NCBI GenBank assembly: GCA_963663405.2
Contig: CAXXSM010000110.1
Span: forward strand, 96,001 to 160,000
Length of the DNA: 64,000 nt
DNA from: a bacterium
Lineage (GTDB): Bacteria > Hinthialibacterota > Hinthialibacteria > Hinthialibacterales > Hinthialibacteraceae
Direction of reading: 5' to 3'
The position numbers and the translations under genes are program-made. The notes under the pieces are model-generated. The model did not search any database. It was not told where the DNA came from and saw nothing but the letters and a program-made list of their open reading frames with translations. Below, piece after piece: positions 50,423-63,700 of this stretch (the first letter of the stretch is position 1; every line of letters starts with the position of its first letter).

Positions 50423-50527
50423 CTTGATTAATCTCCCACATATTGAAGCCCATGCATTTCAGAATTCTCACGGGTGGATTTAAAATAGATCGAAACAGTT
50501 AATTTCGTCTTGAGCACATTTAATGAC

Positions 50528-51250
50528 ATGCTTACAGAACTACAAGGTCTTATAGAACGTATTACGTATTTTAACGAAGAGACAGGTTACACCGTCGCTC
50601 GAATAAAAGTCCATGGCCGCCATGATTTAGTCACCGCTGTTGGCAACATGCATGAGATGAATCCCGGTGAGATCATCCAGATGAAGGGAGAGTGGAGCAA
50701 TCACCCCAAGTTTGGTGAGCAATTCAAAATCCAATATTACGAATCAAAAGTTCCTGCCTCTGTAACCGGTATCCAGAGATATTTGGGATCGGGCTTGATT
50801 AAAGGGATCGGGCCGGTGATGGCCAAAAGGATCGTTAAGAAATTCGGAGACAAGACACTCGACATAATCGAAGAGGATGTAAAGCGACTGATCGAAGTCG
50901 ATGGGATCGGCAAGAAACGAGTGGATATGATAACCAAGGCATGGGAAGAGCAAAAGGAGATCCGGCAGGTCATGCTCTTCCTCCAATCCCACGGGGTGAG
51001 TTCCACTTACGCCACAAAGATCTTCAAGCAATATGGAAACGCCGCCATATCCATCGTCAAGGAAAATCCCTATCGATTAGCGACGGATATCTTTGGGATC
51101 GGTTTTATTACCGCCGACCGGATTGCCGAAAAATTGGGATTCGCCAAGGATTCTGAACTAAGGGCGCAAGCAGGGATTCTCTATGTTCTCAACCAATTCG
51201 CAGACGAAGGCCATGTCTATTATCCTCAGGACGACTTAGTGATCACGTAA
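50528..51250 (+). pseudogene. recD2: RecD2-like helicase, N-terminal third only
   Basis: GLIERITYFNEETGYTVAR, HPKFGEQF, YLGSGLIKGIGP, NPYRLA.DIFGIGF.TAD; ends before any Walker A motif. Confidence 0.88.
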
Positions 51251-51598: not shown

Positions 51599-52702
51599 AT
51601 GAAAAATCTTGCTGAAGAGGAGAACAATCCCGAAGTCGAGAACCAATTTTTACGTGATCGCATTTTTCAATTGGAAACAGAACTGGAAATTTTGCGCAAA
51701 CAAGGAAGAAATAAGAATCATAAACCACGCTATTCACTTCGAGAACGGTTGTGGATTCTTTGGTACAAGGAATATTTCCAAATTTCCACTCGGGAGATGA
51801 CGAAACGACTCGGTGTGGCTCGATCAACGATTAATCGATGGCTGAAGAATATCGAAAATCAAAGTGGGAACAAAAACGAACCAGCAAACAAAACTCCTAT
51901 CGAAGTGGCCCTACTCGTCTGGGAAATAGCCAAAGCCAATCCGCATTGGGGACGGATTCGGATTTCTCTTCAGTTATCCCTTCTTAACATTTTCTTGGCG
52001 GCCTCGACGGTTCGCAATATCCTGCAACGACCTTATCCACCAGGGGAACCATCTCTGGCGCCCAATCCGGCTGGAGAAAATAGTGATCAATCCTCCCAGC
52101 GGTCCATCCCGGCTTGGTATCCCAATCACGTGTGGAGTGTGGATCGAACAATTGTGTTTCGGTGGGGATTGTGGCCAACATACGTTCTTGTTGCAATTGA
52201 CCATTATTCCCGGAAGGTGGTTTGCTGCTCTCCCCTGGAAGGCCCCAATGCTGGTTGGACAATTGAAGCCTTGGAACAAGCAATTGAAATCCATGGCTCT
52301 CCGAAGCATATTATCTCTGATCAAGAACCGATTTTTACCAGCGACGCTTTCGCTGAATTTGTTGATAATTTTAACATGAAGCAGCGTTTGGGCGCGGTTG
52401 GAAAACATGGTTCGATCGCTGTGACCGAACGAGTGAACAAGACGCTAAAATATGAATGGTTGAACCGGGTAGCGATTGTCAAAGGATTTGATCATCTGGA
52501 ATCTCTTTGCAATTCATTTACGGAATGGTACAACGAATGGCGGTCACATTATCGATTTGAGGGAAAAACTCCCAATGAAGTTCATGCAGAACGCCAAAAA
52601 GATCAATTAAACAGAGACGAGAAAACAGTCCCCTTCCCTATTGAACGACGCCGGTTCGAAGAAACAAATACTATGGCTTTTCGTCTTTCAAAAGCGGCTT
52701 GA
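51599..52702 (+). CDS. DDE (rve/integrase core) transposase; ancestral start probably ATG 51512, now cut by TAG 51572
   Basis: HTH LGVARSTINRW; NPHWGRIRI; D (WSVD), D (IISDQ), E (TERVNKTLK). Confidence 0.88.
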   Translation: MKNLAEEENNPEVENQFLRDRIFQLETELEILRKQGRNKNHKPRYSLRERLWILWYKEYFQISTREMTKRLGVARSTINRWLKNIENQSGNKNEPANKTPIEVALLVWEIAKANPHWGRIRISLQLSLLNIFLAASTVRNILQRPYPPGEPSLAPNPAGENSDQSSQRSIPAWYPNHVWSVDRTIVFRWGLWPTYVLVAIDHYSRKVVCCSPLEGPNAGWTIEALEQAIEIHGSPKHIISDQEPIFTSDAFAEFVDNFNMKQRLGAVGKHGSIAVTERVNKTLKYEWLNRVAIVKGFDHLESLCNSFTEWYNEWRSHYRFEGKTPNEVHAERQKDQLNRDEKTVPFPIERRRFEETNTMAFRLSKAA

Positions 52703-52903
52703 AATTGTATTGACCTATAATCATGTAACGATTCATCAGGGAAGGTGTATCCCCCAGACATCAAACCTAAAACGTTATTGTTAAAACAATTAAAGAACAT
52801 CTGTTACTGGCTTCATTCACAACCTAAAAAACTGCTAAAATCTCTTTTTCCAATCGGTATTATGTGGCCCGATTTAAGCATAACAGCCACAGGATGTTCG
52901 ATC

Positions 52904-55649: not shown

Positions 55650-57788
55650 ATGAATGGGGCTTCCCATAATACAATCGTAAATTTTATCTGGAATATTGCG
55701 GACGATGTACTTCGTGATGTCTACGTTAGGGGTAAATATCGTGATGTGATTTTGCCGATGACCGTTATCCGCCGCTTGGATAGTCTTCTTGAATCTACGA
55801 AAGATGATGTCTTAAAGCAGAAAGAACTTCTCGATAAAGCAGGGATTGCGAACCAAGAAGCCGCTCTGCGCCAAGCCTCCGGTCAGGCTTTCTACAATAT
55901 GTCTGAATTCACCCTCAAAACGTTGTTGGATAATCCCAAGCAACTCCGCTCCAACTTTAACGCCTATCTTGATGGTTTTAGCGGGAACGTTCAAGAAATC
56001 ATCGATAAGTTTGATTTCCGCAACCAACTCAAAAAACTCGAAGACGCCGATGCTTTGGGGTATCTGATCGAAAAATTCATTTCTCCAGCGATCAACCTAA
56101 GCCCTAAACCCGTCATGGATGGCGCCGGAAACGAGAAATTCCCCGCTTTGGACAACCACGGCATGGGGTATGTCTTTGAGGAATTGATCCGCCGGTTCAA
56201 CGAAGAAAACAACGAAGAGGCCGGAGAGCACTTTACACCACGTGAAGTGGTCAAACTCATGGCCAATTTGATCTTCATGCCGATTGCGGACAAGATCGAA
56301 AATAGCACCTATCTTGTTTATGACTGCGCTTGTGGAACGGGCGGGATGTTGACCGTATCTGACGCGGTTTTGAGTGAACTTGCCGAAGAACATAGCAAGA
56401 ATGTTTCCATTCATCTTTACGGTCAAGAGATCAACGCGGAAACCTACGCGATTTGCAAAGCCGATTTGCTGCTGAAAGGCGAAGGCGCCGAAGCGGATAA
56501 TATCCGGTTTGGCTCTACGATTTCATCGGATAATTTCCCATCGAACGAATTTCATTTCATGTTGGCCAATCCACCCTATGGTAAAAGCTGGAAGACAGAT
56601 TTAGACCGCCTTTGCGGCGGAAACAAGAAAGAAATCAAAGATCACCGTTTTGTGGTCGAGCATGGAGGAGACAGTGAGTTCTCACTTGTAACCCGCTCTA
56701 GCGACGGACAACTTATGTTTCTTGTGAATATGTTGAGCAAGATGAAATCACCGGAAACAACACCTTTTGGAAGCCGTGTGGCTACGGTTCATAATGGATC
56801 TTCTCTTTTCACGGGGGACGCCGGTCAGGGAGAATCCAACATCCGCCGTTGGATCATCGAAAACGATTGGCTTGAAGCCATTATCGCCCTGCCTGAGAAC
56901 ATGTTCTACAACACGGGCATAGCAACCTATATTTGGTTGCTGTCCAATAAGAAAGACAAGAATCGGAAAGGCAGAGTGCAACTCATTAACGCTACGGAGT
57001 GGTATTCCCCTCTCCGCAAGAATTTGGGTAAAAAGAATTGTGAATTTACGGATGACCACATTCAGAAAATATGTCAATTGGTCTCAAAGCCGAAAGAAAC
57101 GGAACAATCCAAGATTTTCCCTAATGAGGCGTTTGGGTATTGGAAATTCACAGTAGAGCGGCCTTTGCGTCTCAAAGCCGATTTTTCAAAAGAAAACATG
57201 GAACGTTTTCGTCAATACTGCGAATCCGTCAACGATGAGCCACTCGCTGAATTCGTTGAGCGAGTGGTTAAACGTTTTGGTGTTGGCCCTCATCTGAATT
57301 TCAATGATTTCTTACGTTCAATCAAAGAAGACGCGGAAGAGCAAAACATCAAACTCACGACCAAACGGTTTAAAGCAATTCGTTCGGAACTCACAATCAT
57401 TGATGAAGGCGCGGAGCCGGTTATCAAGAAGATTCATAAATCATCCAAAACCGTACCCAATCCCAAATACGGCCTGTTTGAAACGGTAATCGATGGGAAG
57501 ATCCGTGTCGTTGAATATGAACCGGATACGAACTTAAGGGATTCGGAACAGGCGTCATTGTTGGAAGAGGGAGGGATTGAAGCGTTTTTCGAGCGTGAAG
57601 TCCTGCTCTACGTTCCTGACGCTTGGATTGATGAATCAAGTACGAAAATCGGTTATGAGATTTCGTTTACCCGGTATTTCTACAAACCCGTTCCATTGAG
57701 AACGTTGGAAGAGATTAAGGCGGATATCTTCGCATTAGAATCAGAGACGGAAGGATTGCTTGAAGAGATTATTGGGGAGGCAGATTAA
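55650..57788 (+). CDS. hsdM: Type I restriction-modification methyltransferase subunit
   Basis: FIWNIADDVLR, AGEHFTPREVV, YDCACGTGGML, ANPPYG. Confidence 0.95.
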   Translation: MNGASHNTIVNFIWNIADDVLRDVYVRGKYRDVILPMTVIRRLDSLLESTKDDVLKQKELLDKAGIANQEAALRQASGQAFYNMSEFTLKTLLDNPKQLRSNFNAYLDGFSGNVQEIIDKFDFRNQLKKLEDADALGYLIEKFISPAINLSPKPVMDGAGNEKFPALDNHGMGYVFEELIRRFNEENNEEAGEHFTPREVVKLMANLIFMPIADKIENSTYLVYDCACGTGGMLTVSDAVLSELAEEHSKNVSIHLYGQEINAETYAICKADLLLKGEGAEADNIRFGSTISSDNFPSNEFHFMLANPPYGKSWKTDLDRLCGGNKKEIKDHRFVVEHGGDSEFSLVTRSSDGQLMFLVNMLSKMKSPETTPFGSRVATVHNGSSLFTGDAGQGESNIRRWIIENDWLEAIIALPENMFYNTGIATYIWLLSNKKDKNRKGRVQLINATEWYSPLRKNLGKKNCEFTDDHIQKICQLVSKPKETEQSKIFPNEAFGYWKFTVERPLRLKADFSKENMERFRQYCESVNDEPLAEFVERVVKRFGVGPHLNFNDFLRSIKEDAEEQNIKLTTKRFKAIRSELTIIDEGAEPVIKKIHKSSKTVPNPKYGLFETVIDGKIRVVEYEPDTNLRDSEQASLLEEGGIEAFFEREVLLYVPDAWIDESSTKIGYEISFTRYFYKPVPLRTLEEIKADIFALESETEGLLEEIIGEAD

Positions 57789-58025
57789 TGAAATTGTCTC
57801 CTTATCAAAAATACAAAGATTTGGGCGTAGAATGGCTTGGAGAGATTCCTGAGCATTGGGATAAGAGAAAAGTCAAATATCTTTTCAAGGAAAGAGTTGA
57901 AAAGGGGCATCCAGATCAACCTCTACTTGCCGCAACGCAAGTTAAGGGGGTTATACTAAAATCGTTATATGAGAATAGAACAGTATTAGCACAAAAGGAT
58001 TTACATCTACTTAAATTAGTGAAAA
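57788..58025 (+). pseudogene. hsdS: Type I R-M specificity subunit, truncated after ~79 codons by the adjacent element
   Basis: YKDLGVEWLGEIPEHW; start overlaps the hsdM stop; the frame enters the element at 58024-58026. Confidence 0.88.
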
Positions 58026-58277
58026 TAGATAGGAGTTTTTATCGAGCGAAGCCGAGATACAAACTCTATTGGACGAAGTGCGGGGGGAATGTGAGAACCA
58101 ATAACACGCCATTTATTCGCGAAACGGCTTAATTGAGGAAGAGAAGTTGATAGTTTAGAAAGAGAAAATCCTCTTGAAGCTATAGAAATCCCCTCACGGC
58201 AAGAAAAGTAAAAAATCTTCCCGCGTAAAGTTATAATTTCTTTATATTACCATCGCGATGCTTACAATCGGAATCGA

Positions 58278-59444
58278 TCAGGGGCTTCGATTCCGATTGA
58301 GGGTTTCAATGACAATCACGTTACAGCTTTTGCAACGCGGACATTTAGGCCATTCCGGCGCCGATTCTTGGCCGGTCCGATCGAATACTGCTTTGTCGTT
58401 GGTCTCTTTTGAAACGATGGAATTCTCAACCGATTCGGGAATAGAAACGCTCTCCGCCTTGGGGGCGAGGAGCAAACGGATTCGATTGCGTGTGTCCCGA
58501 TGACAGTGATGCCACAGCCCATAGTAGCGGACTTTATGGAAGCCGCGGGGGAGCACATGCATCACGAAGCGCCGCAGAAATTCTTCGCCCGGCAAGCGGA
58601 GAGTTCGCCAATGCTTCTCTTTGAAGGTCTTGTAGCGGAACGTCACGTGGGTAGCGTCCATTGCCAGAAGCCGGTGGTTGGAGATCGCGATGCGATAGAC
58701 ATAGCGCCCCAGGTAATTCAAGATGGCTTTCACGCCTTTGCCATACGGTTTGCAGAACGAGTTCCAGCCTCTATTCCAGACCTTGGTCTCGATGCCTTGG
58801 AAGATCTCCGGCGCCGCTTTTTCGAGCCGTTCTTTAAAGCGCCGGCGAACGAGTAAGCTGAGCGTTCCCACATGGAGAAGCCATTTCGGGTGGCGGAGTT
58901 CCATCCAAGAGTGGCCGTCCTCACTCACGGCGCCGGCGCTGACCAACAGATGGACATGTGGATGCAATTCCAGATCTCCCCGCCAAGTGTGCAGCACGGC
59001 CAGGATCGCCGGGGTCCCGCCAACGACTTGGGGATTGCGCATCAGATCCATGATACAGGAAGCAGCCGTCGTCATCAGCAACCCATAGAGAATCTTTTGA
59101 TGAGCCAAGAAAGCCGCCCGGATAGACTGCGGAACTGTTACGATTACATGAAAGTAACGGCAGCCAAGCATCTGGTCTTCCCGCTTCTCGATCCATTGCC
59201 GCATCGCCTGGGAATGACAGGACGGACAGGATCGATTGCCACACCCGTGATACACCCAGAAGTCTTCGCCGCAGTCCTGACAGTGATAACGATGCCCTCC
59301 CAGTTCCGCCGTATGACAGGCCATGATATCGTGCAGCGCTTTACGCTGGGAGGGCAAAAGGCGCTTCCCTTGCTGCCGGATATAGGCCGGGCCAAACCGG
59401 CGAACCACATCGCCGAGTTCGAGGTTCGATGAAGTGCAATTCAT
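58278..59444 (-). CDS. IS91-family (Y2/HUH) rolling-circle transposase
   Basis: N-terminal zinc motifs CQDC and CGNRSCPSC; LHTW...HPHVH; YLGRY; HVLPRGFHKVRYYG; CPRC. Confidence 0.95.
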   Translation of the reverse strand: MNCTSSNLELGDVVRRFGPAYIRQQGKRLLPSQRKALHDIMACHTAELGGHRYHCQDCGEDFWVYHGCGNRSCPSCHSQAMRQWIEKREDQMLGCRYFHVIVTVPQSIRAAFLAHQKILYGLLMTTAASCIMDLMRNPQVVGGTPAILAVLHTWRGDLELHPHVHLLVSAGAVSEDGHSWMELRHPKWLLHVGTLSLLVRRRFKERLEKAAPEIFQGIETKVWNRGWNSFCKPYGKGVKAILNYLGRYVYRIAISNHRLLAMDATHVTFRYKTFKEKHWRTLRLPGEEFLRRFVMHVLPRGFHKVRYYGLWHHCHRDTRNRIRLLLAPKAESVSIPESVENSIVSKETNDKAVFDRTGQESAPEWPKCPRCKSCNVIVIETLNRNRSP

Positions 59445-59453
59445 GATTCCTCC

Positions 59454-60301
59454 TCACATCAGATCGGCGAACACGGCGTTGATCCGATCCTGAGCCTCGT
59501 GGCGAAGCGGCTCAGTCAAATGAGTGTAGATCTGTGTCGAACGAATACTGGAATGGCCGAGAAGAATCTGGACAACGCGCAGGCTTTCGCCGTTCTCCAG
59601 CAATCTGCTGGCAAACGAATGACGCATCGAATGCGGCTTCACATCGTCTGTCAGCCCGGTAGCGTTACAGGCCAAGCGAAACGCTTTGCCGAGTGTCGAT
59701 GAGGGAATGTGGTTGGAGCCTTGTTGGTTGGGGAATAGCCAGGTGGGATGGCGATGCATCAACCAGAGTTCACGCATCGGCTCCAACAAGGTGTCCGGGA
59801 GAGGAACGATTCGCTCTTTATCGCCCTTCCCAATAATCCGTAAACTCATTTGGTTGGAATCGATCTGCCGCACCGGAAGAGAGATGACTTCACTGGTCCG
59901 AAGGCCGCACGCATACATCAACGTTAGAGCCAACCGGTAGGGCGTTTTCCTGACGGCGGCCAGGAGGGCGCGAACTTGGGAATGGGTTAATGAATGCGGC
60001 AGGCGCTTTTGGCGAGGCTTACGAATCTTTTTTTTGCAAACAACGGCCACCCCAGATCCAGCGTGGTTTGATAAAGAAATTTCAGCGCGCTGTAGTGGAC
60101 CTGAAACGTTCCGAGAGCGACTTTCTTCACGTCTCGCAAATTCAGTAAATAGACCCGGACGAGTTCCTCGCTAATGCATTCTGGCGAGCAATCAAATTCT
60201 AGAGCGAATGAGGCGACGGCTCGGACGTATGCTTTTTGCGTGCCTTCGCTCAGTCCTGCTAACGTCATGTCTTCGATCATGCGTTTCCGTAATGATTTCA
60301 T
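59454..60301 (-). CDS. Tyrosine recombinase in two overlapping frames, joined by a -1 shift at the A8 run (60028-60035)
   Basis: N-terminal SAM-like part LRKRMIEDM...TQKAY; catalytic residues in GLR, GKG.K.R, HSMRH, LLGH, TQIY. Confidence 0.88.
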
Positions 60302-60400
60302 GATCTTTCTCCTGTAAATAAGTAGTGGTTGGCAGTCTTACAGCCACTGCCTTCTCAGAAGAAATACATGACAACTCAGGAGATTTCGCAAGGGGATTGT

Positions 60401-63400
60401 TCAACTAGAAAATTCGGCGTACGACACTCTGCGGCGGAGCCGCTTCGTCCAAGCATCCTTTTTAATCGGCAGTTTTACAGTGAATGTAGTTCCATTTTTT
60501 TCTTCGCTTTCCACAGTTATCGTTCCACCATGTTGCTCAATGATGCTGTATGAAAGGGATAAGCCCAATCCGGTTCCCGATCCAACCGGTTTGGTCGTAA
60601 AGAATGGATCGAAAACCTTTGATAGATTTACTTGGGGAATTCCTTTGCCGTCATCCTGGATGTGTATAATCACATGCTCATTTTCCATACGAGTATATAT
60701 CCAGATGTTTCCTTTGTCTTCGATGAATTCGATTGTGTTTTTGAGAACATTCATGAAAACCTGATTGATCTGGCCAGGAGAACAAGTGATTTTTGGAATG
60801 TCGCTGTAATATTTGTGAATAGTGATACGGTCTCGGCATTGATTTTCGAGAAAAGATAGGGTTGAATCAATGGCGTTATGAATATCGTAAGATGATTGAT
60901 GCGTTTGGTCAATGCGGATGTATTGTCGAAGATCTGAGACAATATTGGCAATACGCAATGAACCTTCTTCGAAGGATTGAAAGATTTTATCGCTATCCTG
61001 AGTGACAAAATCTAGATCGGCTTCTTCAAAAATGGATTCATAGTGCATGCGTATTGATTCAGGAAAGTGCTTTTTGTCCTCACGAACCGTGTTCACAAGA
61101 TTACATAAACCATGCATATACTCTTTCAACGGCTGGATATTGCTTTTTATGAAATTGATGGGATTGTTGATCTCGTGGGCGACACCGGCGACGAGTTGAC
61201 CAAGCGACGCCATTTTTCCCGATTGGATAAGTTGGTTTTGAGTTTGACGGAGTGTTTTGTAACTCAGGCGCAGTTTGAAATGACGGTTGAAAGCATAGGA
61301 AACGGATAGAATCGCTAATAGCAGAATGGTAATAATTCGATAATCCAGATACCATGGTAAATCAACTGTGAAGTTCCATGACTCTGGTTCGCTTTTATTC
61401 CAATTCCGATCCATGGCTCGAACCTGAAAACAATGGTCACCCGGCGTTAAATTACTACACTTTGCAACAGTATCATCTTTGAATTGTGACCATGAAGCAT
61501 CATCAATTCGATAAGAATAATAGAGCCGGTTTGAAGTTGTGTAATTCCATTTGTCAGTTCCTGAATAATTAAAATTGACTTCACCGCCTGATGCAATTTC
61601 ACGAACATTTTTAGGATCGATGATGGCTTTGGGCGGATCTTGATCCGCTGTCGTGTCGAACTTCCCGATTCCTTTCGTCGTACATGCCCATATATCACCA
61701 GTACGATCAATCAGCACATCATTTACATAAGAACTGGGCAAGCCATCTTCTTGATTAAAAGTGTCCCAACTTCCTTCAGAATAACGGTGCAGGCCTGATC
61801 CTGACGCAATCCAAATCGTCCCATCTTGTCCTTGTGTCATTGATCGAACCTGATCGAATGACTCATATTCTGATTCAACTTCAGACCATTTCTTTCCATC
61901 GTATTTAGAGATTTTATCGCGACCACCAAACCAAATTTTTCCGTCATGTAATTGTAAAATACTCAAGACTCCCCCATCTTTAATCTCATCGATATGTCCA
62001 AAAGTCTGATATTGTTCATTCGAACGATATACCGCTAAACCATCTTCTCCCGTTCCTCCGAACCATACATTTCCATCTTCATCTTCATAGATACAACGTA
62101 ATTCACCAATTTTCCAATCACTTCCTTTATCTAAAAAAGGGTGAAATTGCGTCCCATCATAATATTCTATGCGAAAATGTTTATAATAGTCTTCCCGTTT
62201 AAATTGAATCCAGCACGTCTGATTTTTTCGCGGAGCAATTAAACCAATTGTTTCACTTACCGCCTTGACATGCTCTGATTTGTGGGTTTTAGAATCAAAC
62301 AATTGTAAATAATCTTTCGCGTTAGTCCCAATTGCAATACGGTTATTTGGAAGTTGTACTATAGAATCTGTCTGAAATGATTTTGTTTCTATATCATCCT
62401 CTAGTTGGATTGTTTCCCATTTGCCATTTTGATACGTTTCAAGCAAATTCCCACAGGAAAACCATAATTTACCTTCATTATCCTCAAAAATACTATTAAT
62501 ATTAGATCGGATTTCCTTGATCTCTTTCGGCGCACTCCATATAGAAGGAGAACAACGGGCGATTCCCAGTGAAGTAGATATCCAGAATTTTCTTTCGGAT
62601 TCAATGGAAACGTCTAAAAATTTCCCCGATAAAACTCCCTCGCCGGGTATCATATTTACATCGTATCCGGTTCCATCTCTTTTAGGATATAGCCGCATAA
62701 GTTCATTTTTCGACATCACCCAAATACAATCTTGATCACCTCTCCAACCAGCTATGATGTTAATATTGCTGTTATCGTCAGCTGGATAAATTCTCTCCCA
62801 ATTCTCATCTTGAAAGCGTAGTAAAATTTTTCTTGTTTTCTCTATTTTATGTCCTACTACAAACAGTTCACCAGATTTGCTTTCGATGGGAGAGTGCAAA
62901 TCTTTTATGTTCCACTCTTTATCCAGTATACTTTCAATATAGTTTGTGCACTTTTCCTTTTCTTGAAGATCTATATCCAGTCTTGCAATCCCTTTTTCTC
63001 CTGTTAGCCAGAATCCACCCTTGCTATTCTTCGCGATCTCAAGAAACCGGCCTAGTCTTGTATTGGTTGCCGATTGAATCTCTGACGACATTTTTGTCTT
63101 CGCGTTAAATCCAATTAGACGATCTGGTAGTAAAAAGATAAATTGATCCTCTTTGTAAGGTAAAAAAGGTAAGAGATAAGAATTTTCGTCGATTCCGGCA
63201 ATTTTTACGGAATGAGATATGTCATCAATTTTAGTATCTTTAAGCGCTTCTATAGAATAAAATTCCCAATGATCTTGATCTTTCATGTACTTTTGAATAC
63301 CATTCCAATTCCAACTTCCATCATGGTGTTGAGCCCAAATATGGCCTTGAACGTCTTCATACACATGTAGAAATGAGCCTGGACTTTTGATTCTATTAAT

Positions 63401-63700
63401 TTTGTAACCATCATACCAACTCATTTCTCTAACATCCCCATGATTTATCCAAACATTACGATTTTCGCTGAAAGAGATGAATGGTGTATACGATTCTTTT
63501 AATCCATCTGAGGCTCTCCAAAAACGCCAATTCATATTTTGCTGAGCCCATAGAGATTGAAAAGACGATAAGATAAGCAGTAAAAGAAGAAATAATCGAT
63601 AGGAATACACCCTAATCTGTTCTTGTTCAGCGTGAGATGGAATCGTTATTACACGGAAAGTGAGAGTCGAAGATAATTTTGTATGAGTTATTTTAGGCAT
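60401..63700 (-). CDS. Sensor histidine kinase with extracytoplasmic beta-propeller and Y_Y_Y domains
   Basis: Signal/TM segment; repeated ED..G.(L/V)WF blades; YYSYRID...LTPGDHCFQVRAMD; TM; GVAHEINNP; DPFFTTK; GTGLGL. Confidence 0.92.
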   Translation of the reverse strand: MPKITHTKLSSTLTFRVITIPSHAEQEQIRVYSYRLFLLLLLILSSFQSLWAQQNMNWRFWRASDGLKESYTPFISFSENRNVWINHGDVREMSWYDGYKINRIKSPGSFLHVYEDVQGHIWAQHHDGSWNWNGIQKYMKDQDHWEFYSIEALKDTKIDDISHSVKIAGIDENSYLLPFLPYKEDQFIFLLPDRLIGFNAKTKMSSEIQSATNTRLGRFLEIAKNSKGGFWLTGEKGIARLDIDLQEKEKCTNYIESILDKEWNIKDLHSPIESKSGELFVVGHKIEKTRKILLRFQDENWERIYPADDNSNINIIAGWRGDQDCIWVMSKNELMRLYPKRDGTGYDVNMIPGEGVLSGKFLDVSIESERKFWISTSLGIARCSPSIWSAPKEIKEIRSNINSIFEDNEGKLWFSCGNLLETYQNGKWETIQLEDDIETKSFQTDSIVQLPNNRIAIGTNAKDYLQLFDSKTHKSEHVKAVSETIGLIAPRKNQTCWIQFKREDYYKHFRIEYYDGTQFHPFLDKGSDWKIGELRCIYEDEDGNVWFGGTGEDGLAVYRSNEQYQTFGHIDEIKDGGVLSILQLHDGKIWFGGRDKISKYDGKKWSEVESEYESFDQVRSMTQGQDGTIWIASGSGLHRYSEGSWDTFNQEDGLPSSYVNDVLIDRTGDIWACTTKGIGKFDTTADQDPPKAIIDPKNVREIASGGEVNFNYSGTDKWNYTTSNRLYYSYRIDDASWSQFKDDTVAKCSNLTPGDHCFQVRAMDRNWNKSEPESWNFTVDLPWYLDYRIITILLLAILSVSYAFNRHFKLRLSYKTLRQTQNQLIQSGKMASLGQLVAGVAHEINNPINFIKSNIQPLKEYMHGLCNLVNTVREDKKHFPESIRMHYESIFEEADLDFVTQDSDKIFQSFEEGSLRIANIVSDLRQYIRIDQTHQSSYDIHNAIDSTLSFLENQCRDRITIHKYYSDIPKITCSPGQINQVFMNVLKNTIEFIEDKGNIWIYTRMENEHVIIHIQDDGKGIPQVNLSKVFDPFFTTKPVGSGTGLGLSLSYSIIEQHGGTITVESEEKNGTTFTVKLPIKKDAWTKRLRRRVSYAEFSS

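Follow-up and report, generated by a model that had tools for sequence, protein, structure and literature searches.

An IS91-family insertion sequence with an integron-like tyrosine recombinase gene, a putative recoding site and a conserved hairpin at its joined ends

IS91, IS801 and IS1294, as described in the excerpts of a published account that concern them (PMC13181058), encode a Y2 HUH transposase with an N-terminal zinc-binding domain. They carry subterminal palindromes at both ends, the oriIS palindrome downstream of tnpA and the terIS palindrome upstream, and they insert without target duplication beside a short motif at oriIS that resembles the last bases of terIS, that is, its cleavage motif. 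The same excerpts state that the substrate of IS91 is a bottom-strand single-stranded circle with abutted ends, that TnpA alone inserts this circle, and that Orf121, the product of an open reading frame (ORF) upstream of IS91 tnpA, damps transposition and sharpens termination. Tyrosine recombinase genes next to such transposase genes have also been described: part of one survey counts 245 IS91-XerD gene couples in 15 phyla (PMC9208149), and a classification, as excerpted, places the recombinases "found in IS91 and IS3 transposons" in an integron-like subgroup, as the closest IntI homologues and without the IntI insertion (10.1101/542381). The recombinase-transposase gene pair is already known. 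In this study, we analysed a window of 64,000 nucleotides (contig CAXXSM010000110.1, positions 96,001 to 160,000, of assembly GCA_963663405.2, a bacterium of the Hinthialibacteraceae), in which positions 58026-60452 are one copy of an IS91-family insertion sequence. The copy belongs to a branch in which the gene of an Xer/integron-like tyrosine recombinase precedes that of the Y2 HUH transposase, and it probably moves in the manner of IS91, with the recombinase in an accessory part. The branch is catalogued in the IS91 family, yet uncharacterised. Our literature search found the gene association described and found no account of a hairpin at the joint of the ends, of the role of the recombinase or of a frameshift.

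The element is 2,427 bp long (TAGATAGG...CTTCGTCCAA) and contains two minus-strand genes (Table 1). In gene orientation it consists of the terIS end (TTGGACGAAG and a small hairpin), the recombinase, the transposase and the oriIS end (a GTCCAA repeat, a 45-nt hairpin and TCTATT). An initial annotation of this DNA had proposed a two-gene element combining a tyrosine recombinase with an IS91 HUH transposase, and Pfam and NCBIfam matches support it. The transposase matched NF033538 with 343.8 bits (cut-off 125), PF04986 (Y2_Tnp) with 164.6 bits and PF14319 (IS91 zinc-binding domain) with 98.6 bits. Residues H161, H163, Y244 and Y248 were invariant in an alignment of 25 homologues including this copy; we take them to be the catalytic HUH histidines and tyrosines. 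The gap between the recombinase and the transposase genes is 9 nt and holds GGAGG.

A BLAST search of the source genome (8.4 Mb, 170 contigs) with the element as query found 13 full-length copies, 11 at 99.3-100% identity and two at ~95%, plus two copies interrupted by other insertions, plus fragments, so that the copy number is ~15. With 11 copies at least 99.3% identical, the element has been recently active. In all 13 full copies the right end was ...GCGGCGGAGCCGCTTCGTCCAA (window 60452), i.e. GCTTCGTCCAA, and the left end was (A/T)AA-TAGATAGGAG ((A/T)AA-TAGATAGG), and the flanks were unrelated between copies. The borders are fixed by these copies as AA^TAGATAGG ... CTTCGTCCAA^, where the caret marks the border. 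The AA borders claimed by the initial annotation were therefore constant, with the refinement that position 58024, given there as the left border, is the first A of the AA and that TAGA starts at 58026. The circular joint with a shared AA that it had predicted was present in the DNA itself: a natural head-to-tail tandem in the same genome (C118:28165-33022) has the joint CGTCC-AA-TAGATAGG, with one AA.

An empty site was provided by another repeat, IS481-like by eye, whose invaded copy lies on contig C103 with the element at CTGCTAAAA^TCTC. Six uninterrupted paralogues of this repeat read ...CTAAAA^TCTC (CTGCTAAAA^TCTCTTT), and the filled site adds TAGA...GTCCAA after the existing AA. With its single AA, the empty site is consistent with insertion without duplication; a 2-bp duplication of AA would give the same sequence. 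The target AA is identical to the last two bases at the terIS end. Targets end in (A/T)AA, T follows at +1 in 11 of 14 sites, and TTTT occurs within 16 nt in seven of the 14 as compared with 7.7% of random AA sites (p 3e-5); this T preference weakly echoes the start of oriIS. The orientation of 14 insertions showed no pattern with GC skew and gene direction, in what is a weak test. Most copies are intergenic and reading frames across the joined flanks were uninformative. Among 30 relatives searched for empty sites, no flank DNA in common was found. The expectation that insertion would be unlike canonical IS91 thus did not stand: one AA at the empty site, no other duplication and a match of AA to the last terIS bases are the IS91 rule. 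Since the rule is that of IS91 and TnpA alone inserts in IS91, the recombinase is unnecessary to explain the borders.

The element differs from IS91, IS801 and IS1294 in three respects. A tyrosine recombinase stands in place of orf121 or of nothing, the target is AA (WAA^T) instead of GTTC/CTTG, and the two ends form genuine inverted repeats, of 10 nt in this element and 22 nt in relatives, outside which the oriIS hairpin lies. Helitrons likewise combine a Y2 Rep-type transposase with a subterminal hairpin that lies within a few bases of the 3' end, and they insert at a dinucleotide (AT or TT) with no duplication, whereas they are eukaryotic, carry a fused helicase and have no recombinase; the Replitron paper (PMC10288648) serves for comparison.

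Folded as single-stranded DNA, the 65-nt joint of the two ends reached -17.1 and -16.3 kcal/mol on the two strands (z -6.9 and -5.9), and none of 200 shuffles was as good. The fold has a 14-bp outer stem, a 5-nt bulge, an 8/9-bp inner stem and a GC-triloop-GC tip (GCGAAGC), just as the initial annotation had drawn it. GCGAAGC is an unusually stable DNA mini-hairpin. The crossover boxes GTCCAAT and ATTGGAC each match, at 6/7 positions, RYYYAAC and GTTRRRY, the consensus boxes of the integron site, and the crossover in integrons has the same position as the joining point of the element. An Rfam search of the tandem joint gave no match. In its integrated context the left end by itself has only a weak fold, at -5.0 and -5.6 kcal/mol on the two strands (z -1.1 and -1.9). 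The claim that the full hairpin exists only in the excised circle needs correction for GC-rich relatives, whose 3' hairpin is stable already when integrated.

Relatives were obtained by an alignment-based scan of species-representative genomes, a scan with a single transposase query having yielded none. Of 8,000 candidates scored, 5,366 proved to be homologues of the transposase at E<=1e-30, and contigs of ~2.4 kb carry many of these. We compared 80 loci, mostly from Planctomycetota and also from Alphaproteobacteria, Acidobacteriota, Gemmatimonadota, Ignavibacteriales and others, with transposase identities of 41-54%. Both recombinase halves lie directly upstream of the transposase in 69/80 loci, and the remaining 11 are cut by contig ends or disrupted. 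One locus (L064) with a transposase and no recombinase upstream was considered as evidence on the need for the recombinase and was rejected, being a truncated copy with no recognisable 5' end.

In three multi-copy relative genomes the ends were fixed independently by comparison of copies with differing flanks. In gene orientation they read TTGGACGAAGCGGCTTCGCCGCG ... CGCGGCGAAxCGCTTCGTCCAA, a ~40-nt hairpin and (A/G)TCT(A/G)TT, and the terminal repeat of planctomycete relatives is 22 nt as against 10 nt here. Both ends were further located in 44 loci by a search for the motifs TTGGAC and TCCAA. All 44 show TTGGAC ... GTCCAA followed by a hairpin and, last, a terminal TT, with lengths of 2,406-2,677 bp; as this set was selected by motif, the universal TTGGAC is partly circular, and the independent support comes from the copy comparisons. 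The terminal AA/TT is invariant across the family and not peculiar to this element.

The joints of 37 distinct elements were assembled by script and folded. All 37 fold, with a mean of -31.2 kcal/mol and a mean z of -8.4, whereas the same 3' end with its real flank has -17.7 kcal/mol. The consensus fold of these joints has 23 pairs, 789/850 cells are standard pairs, and 14 pairs have changes on both sides, three of them in the outer stem across the joint. Position and side of the bulge are kept in 37/37. Covarying complementarity of the ends and AA borders, to which the earlier reading had looked in homologues, are thus present as compensatory changes in 37 distinct relatives and as the family-wide terminal AA/TT. 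The boxes of the alphaproteobacterial clade are GTCCAAC and GTTGGAC, 7/7 with the integron consensus, so that the proposed integron-like boxes, at 6/7 here, are complete there; G precedes TT in most targets of this clade. Plasmid pHAU01 of Herpetosiphon aurantiacus DSM 785 carries a copy (Haur_5165, Haur_5164), with ends read by eye, in which TTGAAC is paired with GTTCAA in place of TTGGAC with GTCCAA, so the otherwise invariant box also covaries. GCGAAGC is found at the tips of both the oriIS and the terIS hairpins, on the same strand (the window plus strand), across the family. In two relatives the 3' end is tandemly duplicated just outside the element: the last 111 nt at L055:5302-5522 and the last 20 nt at L119 ~2640-2680, each ending in TT. 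These duplications may have been left behind when initiation at oriIS was aborted or repeated.

The stretches GLRTSE, HSMRHSFA, LGHSS and QIYTH of the recombinase align with XerD at its catalytic motifs; we take them to be the R, H-x-x-R, H and Y motifs, respectively. The catalytic half scored 155.7 bits with the XerA/"integron integrase" model, 150.5 with XerD (cut-off 329.6), 148.7 with XerC (cut-off 335) and 127.2 with the integron integrase model TIGR02249 (cut-off 265). TIGR02249 was also the best NCBIfam match of the N-terminal half (27 bits, under the cut-off), and all recombinase scores are under the curated cut-offs. The relative L056, whose recombinase is full-length and in frame, scored 174.6 bits with XerA, 157.6 with the integron model, 147.8 with XerD and 141 with XerC. 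The matches to TIGR02249 and to PDB 2a3v are each split into two stretches, which indicates that the IntI-specific insertion is absent, in agreement with the published classification (10.1101/542381).

The recombinase gene consists of two overlapping ORFs, which connect only via a -1 shift at an A8 run, with GCA AAA AAA AGA in the 0 frame. The run and the -1 relation are identical in 13/13 copies, including both ~95% copies, and the contigs of the public runs X1 and X2 have no indel at the A run. In the 69 relatives the frame relation is -1 in 49, +1 in 12 and the same frame in eight; the break falls at the same domain border in 61/69, always at an A run; runs of A7-A9 occupy this border in relatives. 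When the 69 loci, this copy and one more are tabulated, there are 50 cases of -1, of which 31 have AAA AAA AAG, 17 another in-phase A heptamer and two an A7 in a non-canonical phase. The +1 cases, mostly alphaproteobacterial, comprise nine with A7 and others with A6 or A8, and as they need a lost base, transcriptional slippage fits them better. Two of the eight in-frame cases have A6 and six are without a run. The split pattern is alike in short-read and long-read assemblies. The recombinase gene looks, from the conserved runs, like a case of programmed frameshifting or slippage, which is the simplest reading; a 104-aa DNA-binding product would be the default and the full enzyme rare. In IS3-type elements a frameshift yields a short DNA-binding product and a longer fusion enzyme, and -1 frameshifting in IS3/IS1 transposases and dnaX similarly uses A_AAA_AAG or A_AAA_AAA in the 0 frame at a domain border. 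Unlike these, the site here lies in a tyrosine recombinase gene of an IS91-type element, and a minority clade needs +1 at an A7 run. The conserved recoding site is new here and was absent from the initial annotation. In the complete plasmid pBs162S2b of Bradyrhizobium septentrionale (L130), an IS91-family transposase is preceded by a recombinase that gives a match in two parts and is not a listed gene. This fits annotation pipelines discarding the frameshifted gene as a pseudogene.

That the recombinase is a frameshift pseudogene, irrelevant to the recent burst, is very improbable. Its ORFs do lie in different frames, and since all 13 copies share the break, the burst happened with the break in place. 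Against this stand the recurrence of the break at the same domain border in 61 of the 69 relatives, across many phyla and always at an A run, the nearly uniform use of a canonical in-phase heptamer in the 49 -1 cases, the full-length domain matches and catalytic motifs kept by both halves, and the agreement of short- and long-read assemblies. It is also improbable, to a lesser degree, that the hairpin has no role as a fold and is only a set of terminal inverted repeats and a palindromic operator bound as duplex DNA. Inverted repeats bound by one protein covary without folding, and the two strands of the joint fold about equally well, leaving no clear strand asymmetry in energy. On the other side, bulge place and side are kept in every joint, GCGAAGC sits at two hairpin tips on the same strand family-wide, HUH enzymes act on single strands, and IS91 uses a single-stranded circle, as excerpted (PMC13181058).

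The initial annotation had proposed a hybrid route, in which single-stranded DNA comes from the HUH protein and the tyrosine recombinase inserts the folded junction at minimal AA/TT targets. Spelled out, the HUH transposase would only copy out the circle, and the recombinase would treat the folded joint as a proto-attC, exchanging a single strand with a minimal N^TT (AA^N) target in the way that IntI joins attC and attI. The element, borders, hairpin and boxes on which this was built stand; the borders need no recombinase, and we regard the route as possible and rather doubtful. In its favour, the joining point falls exactly at N^TTRRRY / RYYYAA^N within a stem followed by the 5-nt bulge and a second stem, the alphaproteobacterial boxes are GTTGGAC/GTCCAAC with G before TT in most targets, the targets resemble the oriIS side of the joint (T at +1, T run), and the integron score of L056 exceeds those of XerD and XerC. 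The ends share only AA, so a joint made by the recombinase cannot use a 6-8 bp duplex overlap and would need an exchange of the integron or CTX type. XerCD integration of single-stranded phage DNA of the CTX type shows how an Xer-like recombinase could use a folded single strand with one-strand exchange; there, however, host recombinases act on a dif target, whereas here the enzyme is element-borne and the targets are many. The likeness to integrons extends to the imperfect hairpin, the RYYYAA / TTRRRY boxes followed by an unpaired stretch and a second stem, and the minimal targets, and the IS91-element recombinases fall, as excerpted, in the integron-like subgroup closest to IntI (10.1101/542381). 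The recombinase nevertheless lacks the IntI-specific insertion and scores under the integron cut-offs, the hairpin arises from two transposon ends and not from a cassette site, the element has an HUH transposase, and the HUH motif and both tyrosines of that transposase are invariant. Within the 2.4-kb element we noticed no attI, cassette promoter or cassette array, though no search aimed at them was made. In IS91, according to the excerpts, the transposase alone inserts the circle (PMC13181058). The AA rule is the ordinary HUH rule.

A quite possible alternative, still short of an even chance, gives all end cutting and joining to the transposase and a housekeeping function to the recombinase: it would resolve head-to-tail multimers or cointegrates (joint x joint, like Xer at cer or dif), or its N-terminal domain would set termination accuracy and damp transposition as Orf121 does. 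The frameshift would provide a two-product logic like that of IS3-type regulators, tandems do occur, and two identical joints offer the sequence identity that a tyrosine recombinase needs. The gene has the place of orf121, upstream of tnpA and beside terIS, it is closely coupled to the transposase (9-nt gap, GGAGG), and the default product would be a 104-aa DNA-binding domain, as compared with 121 aa for Orf121 in the excerpted account (PMC13181058). This account, in the part that concerns Orf121, gives it zipper and zinc motifs and states no recombinase likeness (PMC13181058). Further points against such a function are that no usual duplex core site, with two inverted arms around 6-8 bp, is evident by eye at the joint, and that one tandem remains unresolved in the source genome.

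We favour IS91-like movement with the recombinase as an accessory, as the probable reading, and envisage the following steps. The HUH transposase would cut the bottom strand (the window plus strand, with GCGAAGC) twice, on the 3' side of AA where target and oriIS meet and on the 3' side of GTCCAA at terIS, and a bottom-strand single-stranded circle would be released whose joint is the hairpin with one AA kept. The circle would be reinserted 3' of AA, preferably at AA^T followed by a T run. Tandems would result from insertion beside the AA at the end of a resident copy, or from failed termination. Frameshifting by -1 may yield a small amount of full-length recombinase, the product being the 104-aa DNA-binding domain in other cases, and the recombinase may act on the repeat boxes of the joint in strand exchange of the folded joint, in tandem resolution or in termination control, the role of Orf121 in IS91.

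Several observations weigh against this reading. The targets end in (A/T)AA and do not match the characterised IS91 target GTTC/CTTG, so the analogy with IS91 rests on layout. Among the contigs of the public runs X1-X4 compared with window 57800-60700, no end-to-end joint contig was found; these contigs break at 58024 and 60452, and contig depth is greater over the element than over the flanks, depth not being a copy number. The 11 negative-skew sites have six insertions in the plus and five in the minus orientation, with no sign, in this weak test, of the strand bias expected for insertion at a single-stranded fork. Covariation of the terminal repeats alone cannot tell folding from the binding of both ends by one protein as duplex. 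Retention of the recombinase in nearly all relatives is unexpected for a purely dispensable accessory.

Table 1. Positions of the element, its parts and its flanks in the window
Feature	Position	Strand	Evidence or remark
Left flank: first ~79 codons of a putative hsdS (type I restriction specificity), directly after hsdM, interrupted by the element	57788..58025	+	ORF list
Target AA abutting the oriIS end	58024..58025	+	Either target base pair or 2-bp duplication (ambiguous); precedes TAGATAGG in every copy; single AA at empty site and tandem joint
oriIS-side end	58026..58078	+	Read from sequence, fold and compensatory changes in relatives
oriIS part: TAGA	58026-29		
oriIS part: 5-nt bulge TAGGA	58030-34		
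oriIS part: inner stem	58035-43 / 58056-64		
oriIS part: loop with GCGAAGC	58046-52		
oriIS part: TCTA	58065-68		
oriIS part: subterminal inverted repeat TTGGACGAAG	58069-78		
IS91-family Y2 HUH transposase, 388 aa, intact	58278..59444	-	NF033538, PF04986 and PF14319 matches
Tyrosine recombinase catalytic domain, -1 frame relative to the N-terminal ORF	59454..60050	-	PF00589, 140 bits
Tyrosine recombinase N-terminal SAM-like (core-binding) domain; 104 aa if unshifted	59987..60301	-	PF13495, 64 bits
Coding-strand A8 run, putative -1 frameshift/slippage site linking both recombinase ORFs	60028..60035	-	A_AAA_AAA heptamer, 0 frame, 60035-60029
terIS-side end: small hairpin GCGGC-GGA-GCCGC (60431-43) and terminal inverted repeat CTTCGTCCAA (60443-52)	60431..60452	+	Right border identical from copy to copy
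Right flank: sensor histidine kinase gene; final 17 codons and stop (60452-60401) come from the element	60401..63700	-	ORF list; 60452 border from copy comparison

The flanks of the window copy are mismatched, with the 5' part of an hsdS-like gene on the left and, on the right, a histidine kinase gene that runs on the opposite strand and meets the element at its 3' end. This mismatch suggests a one-ended event, or DNA deleted or rearranged between copies, in place of a simple insertion. The hsdS-like fragment had no Pfam or NCBIfam match and is named from its place after a 712-aa methylase-like ORF. The IS481-like repeat that supplied the empty site is also present in the window (51599-52900) as an ORF for a 367-aa DDE transposase of the integrase-core type, just after a truncated helicase-like ORF (50510-51250), and has copies on at least five other contigs. 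The two interrupted copies, C103:19126-22064 and C103:40328-45045, are broken by other insertions of ~0.5 kb and ~1.8 kb; an end fragment with flank is duplicated close by, and ~70-bp repeats form a long array in the surrounding 10 kb. In two copies lying 675 bp apart (C27:38902-40017 and C27:42008-43123), the transposase gene contains an additional A close to its 3' end, equivalent to window 58333, by which the last ~16 residues are altered. At C77:18133-18168 a solitary 36-nt stretch, not joined to any element, is 92% identical to the start of oriIS and takes in the AA and the beginning of the hairpin; it may be a relic of a copy or mimic a target.

To our knowledge, integron integrases are the only tyrosine recombinases that work routinely on folded single-stranded sites. 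The origin of the integron integrase and of attC is an open question, and the closest catalogued relatives of IntI are found in IS91-type elements, whose transposase makes single-stranded circles. An idea that goes further than the hybrid route, and that we hold to be unlikely, is that these widespread two-gene elements are transposons with copy-out by the HUH enzyme and paste-in by the integron-like tyrosine recombinase, in which the folded terIS-oriIS joint of the circle is a proto-attC, recombined with minimal targets at N^TTRRRY through exchange of one strand, and the dose of recombinase is set by programmed frameshifting; they would then be living relatives of the integron ancestor. In many phyla the joint forms a hairpin that is conserved and covaries, and TTRRRY/RYYYAA boxes lie where the ends are joined; this turns an association of neighbouring genes into a concrete, testable mechanism. 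Members of the family number in the thousands, and at least one host, Herpetosiphon aurantiacus DSM 785, is in culture. Should the recombinase prove to be only a resolvase or a regulator, an accessory gene would be explained in a family tied to the spread of resistance genes, and a new class of recoded genes would be added.

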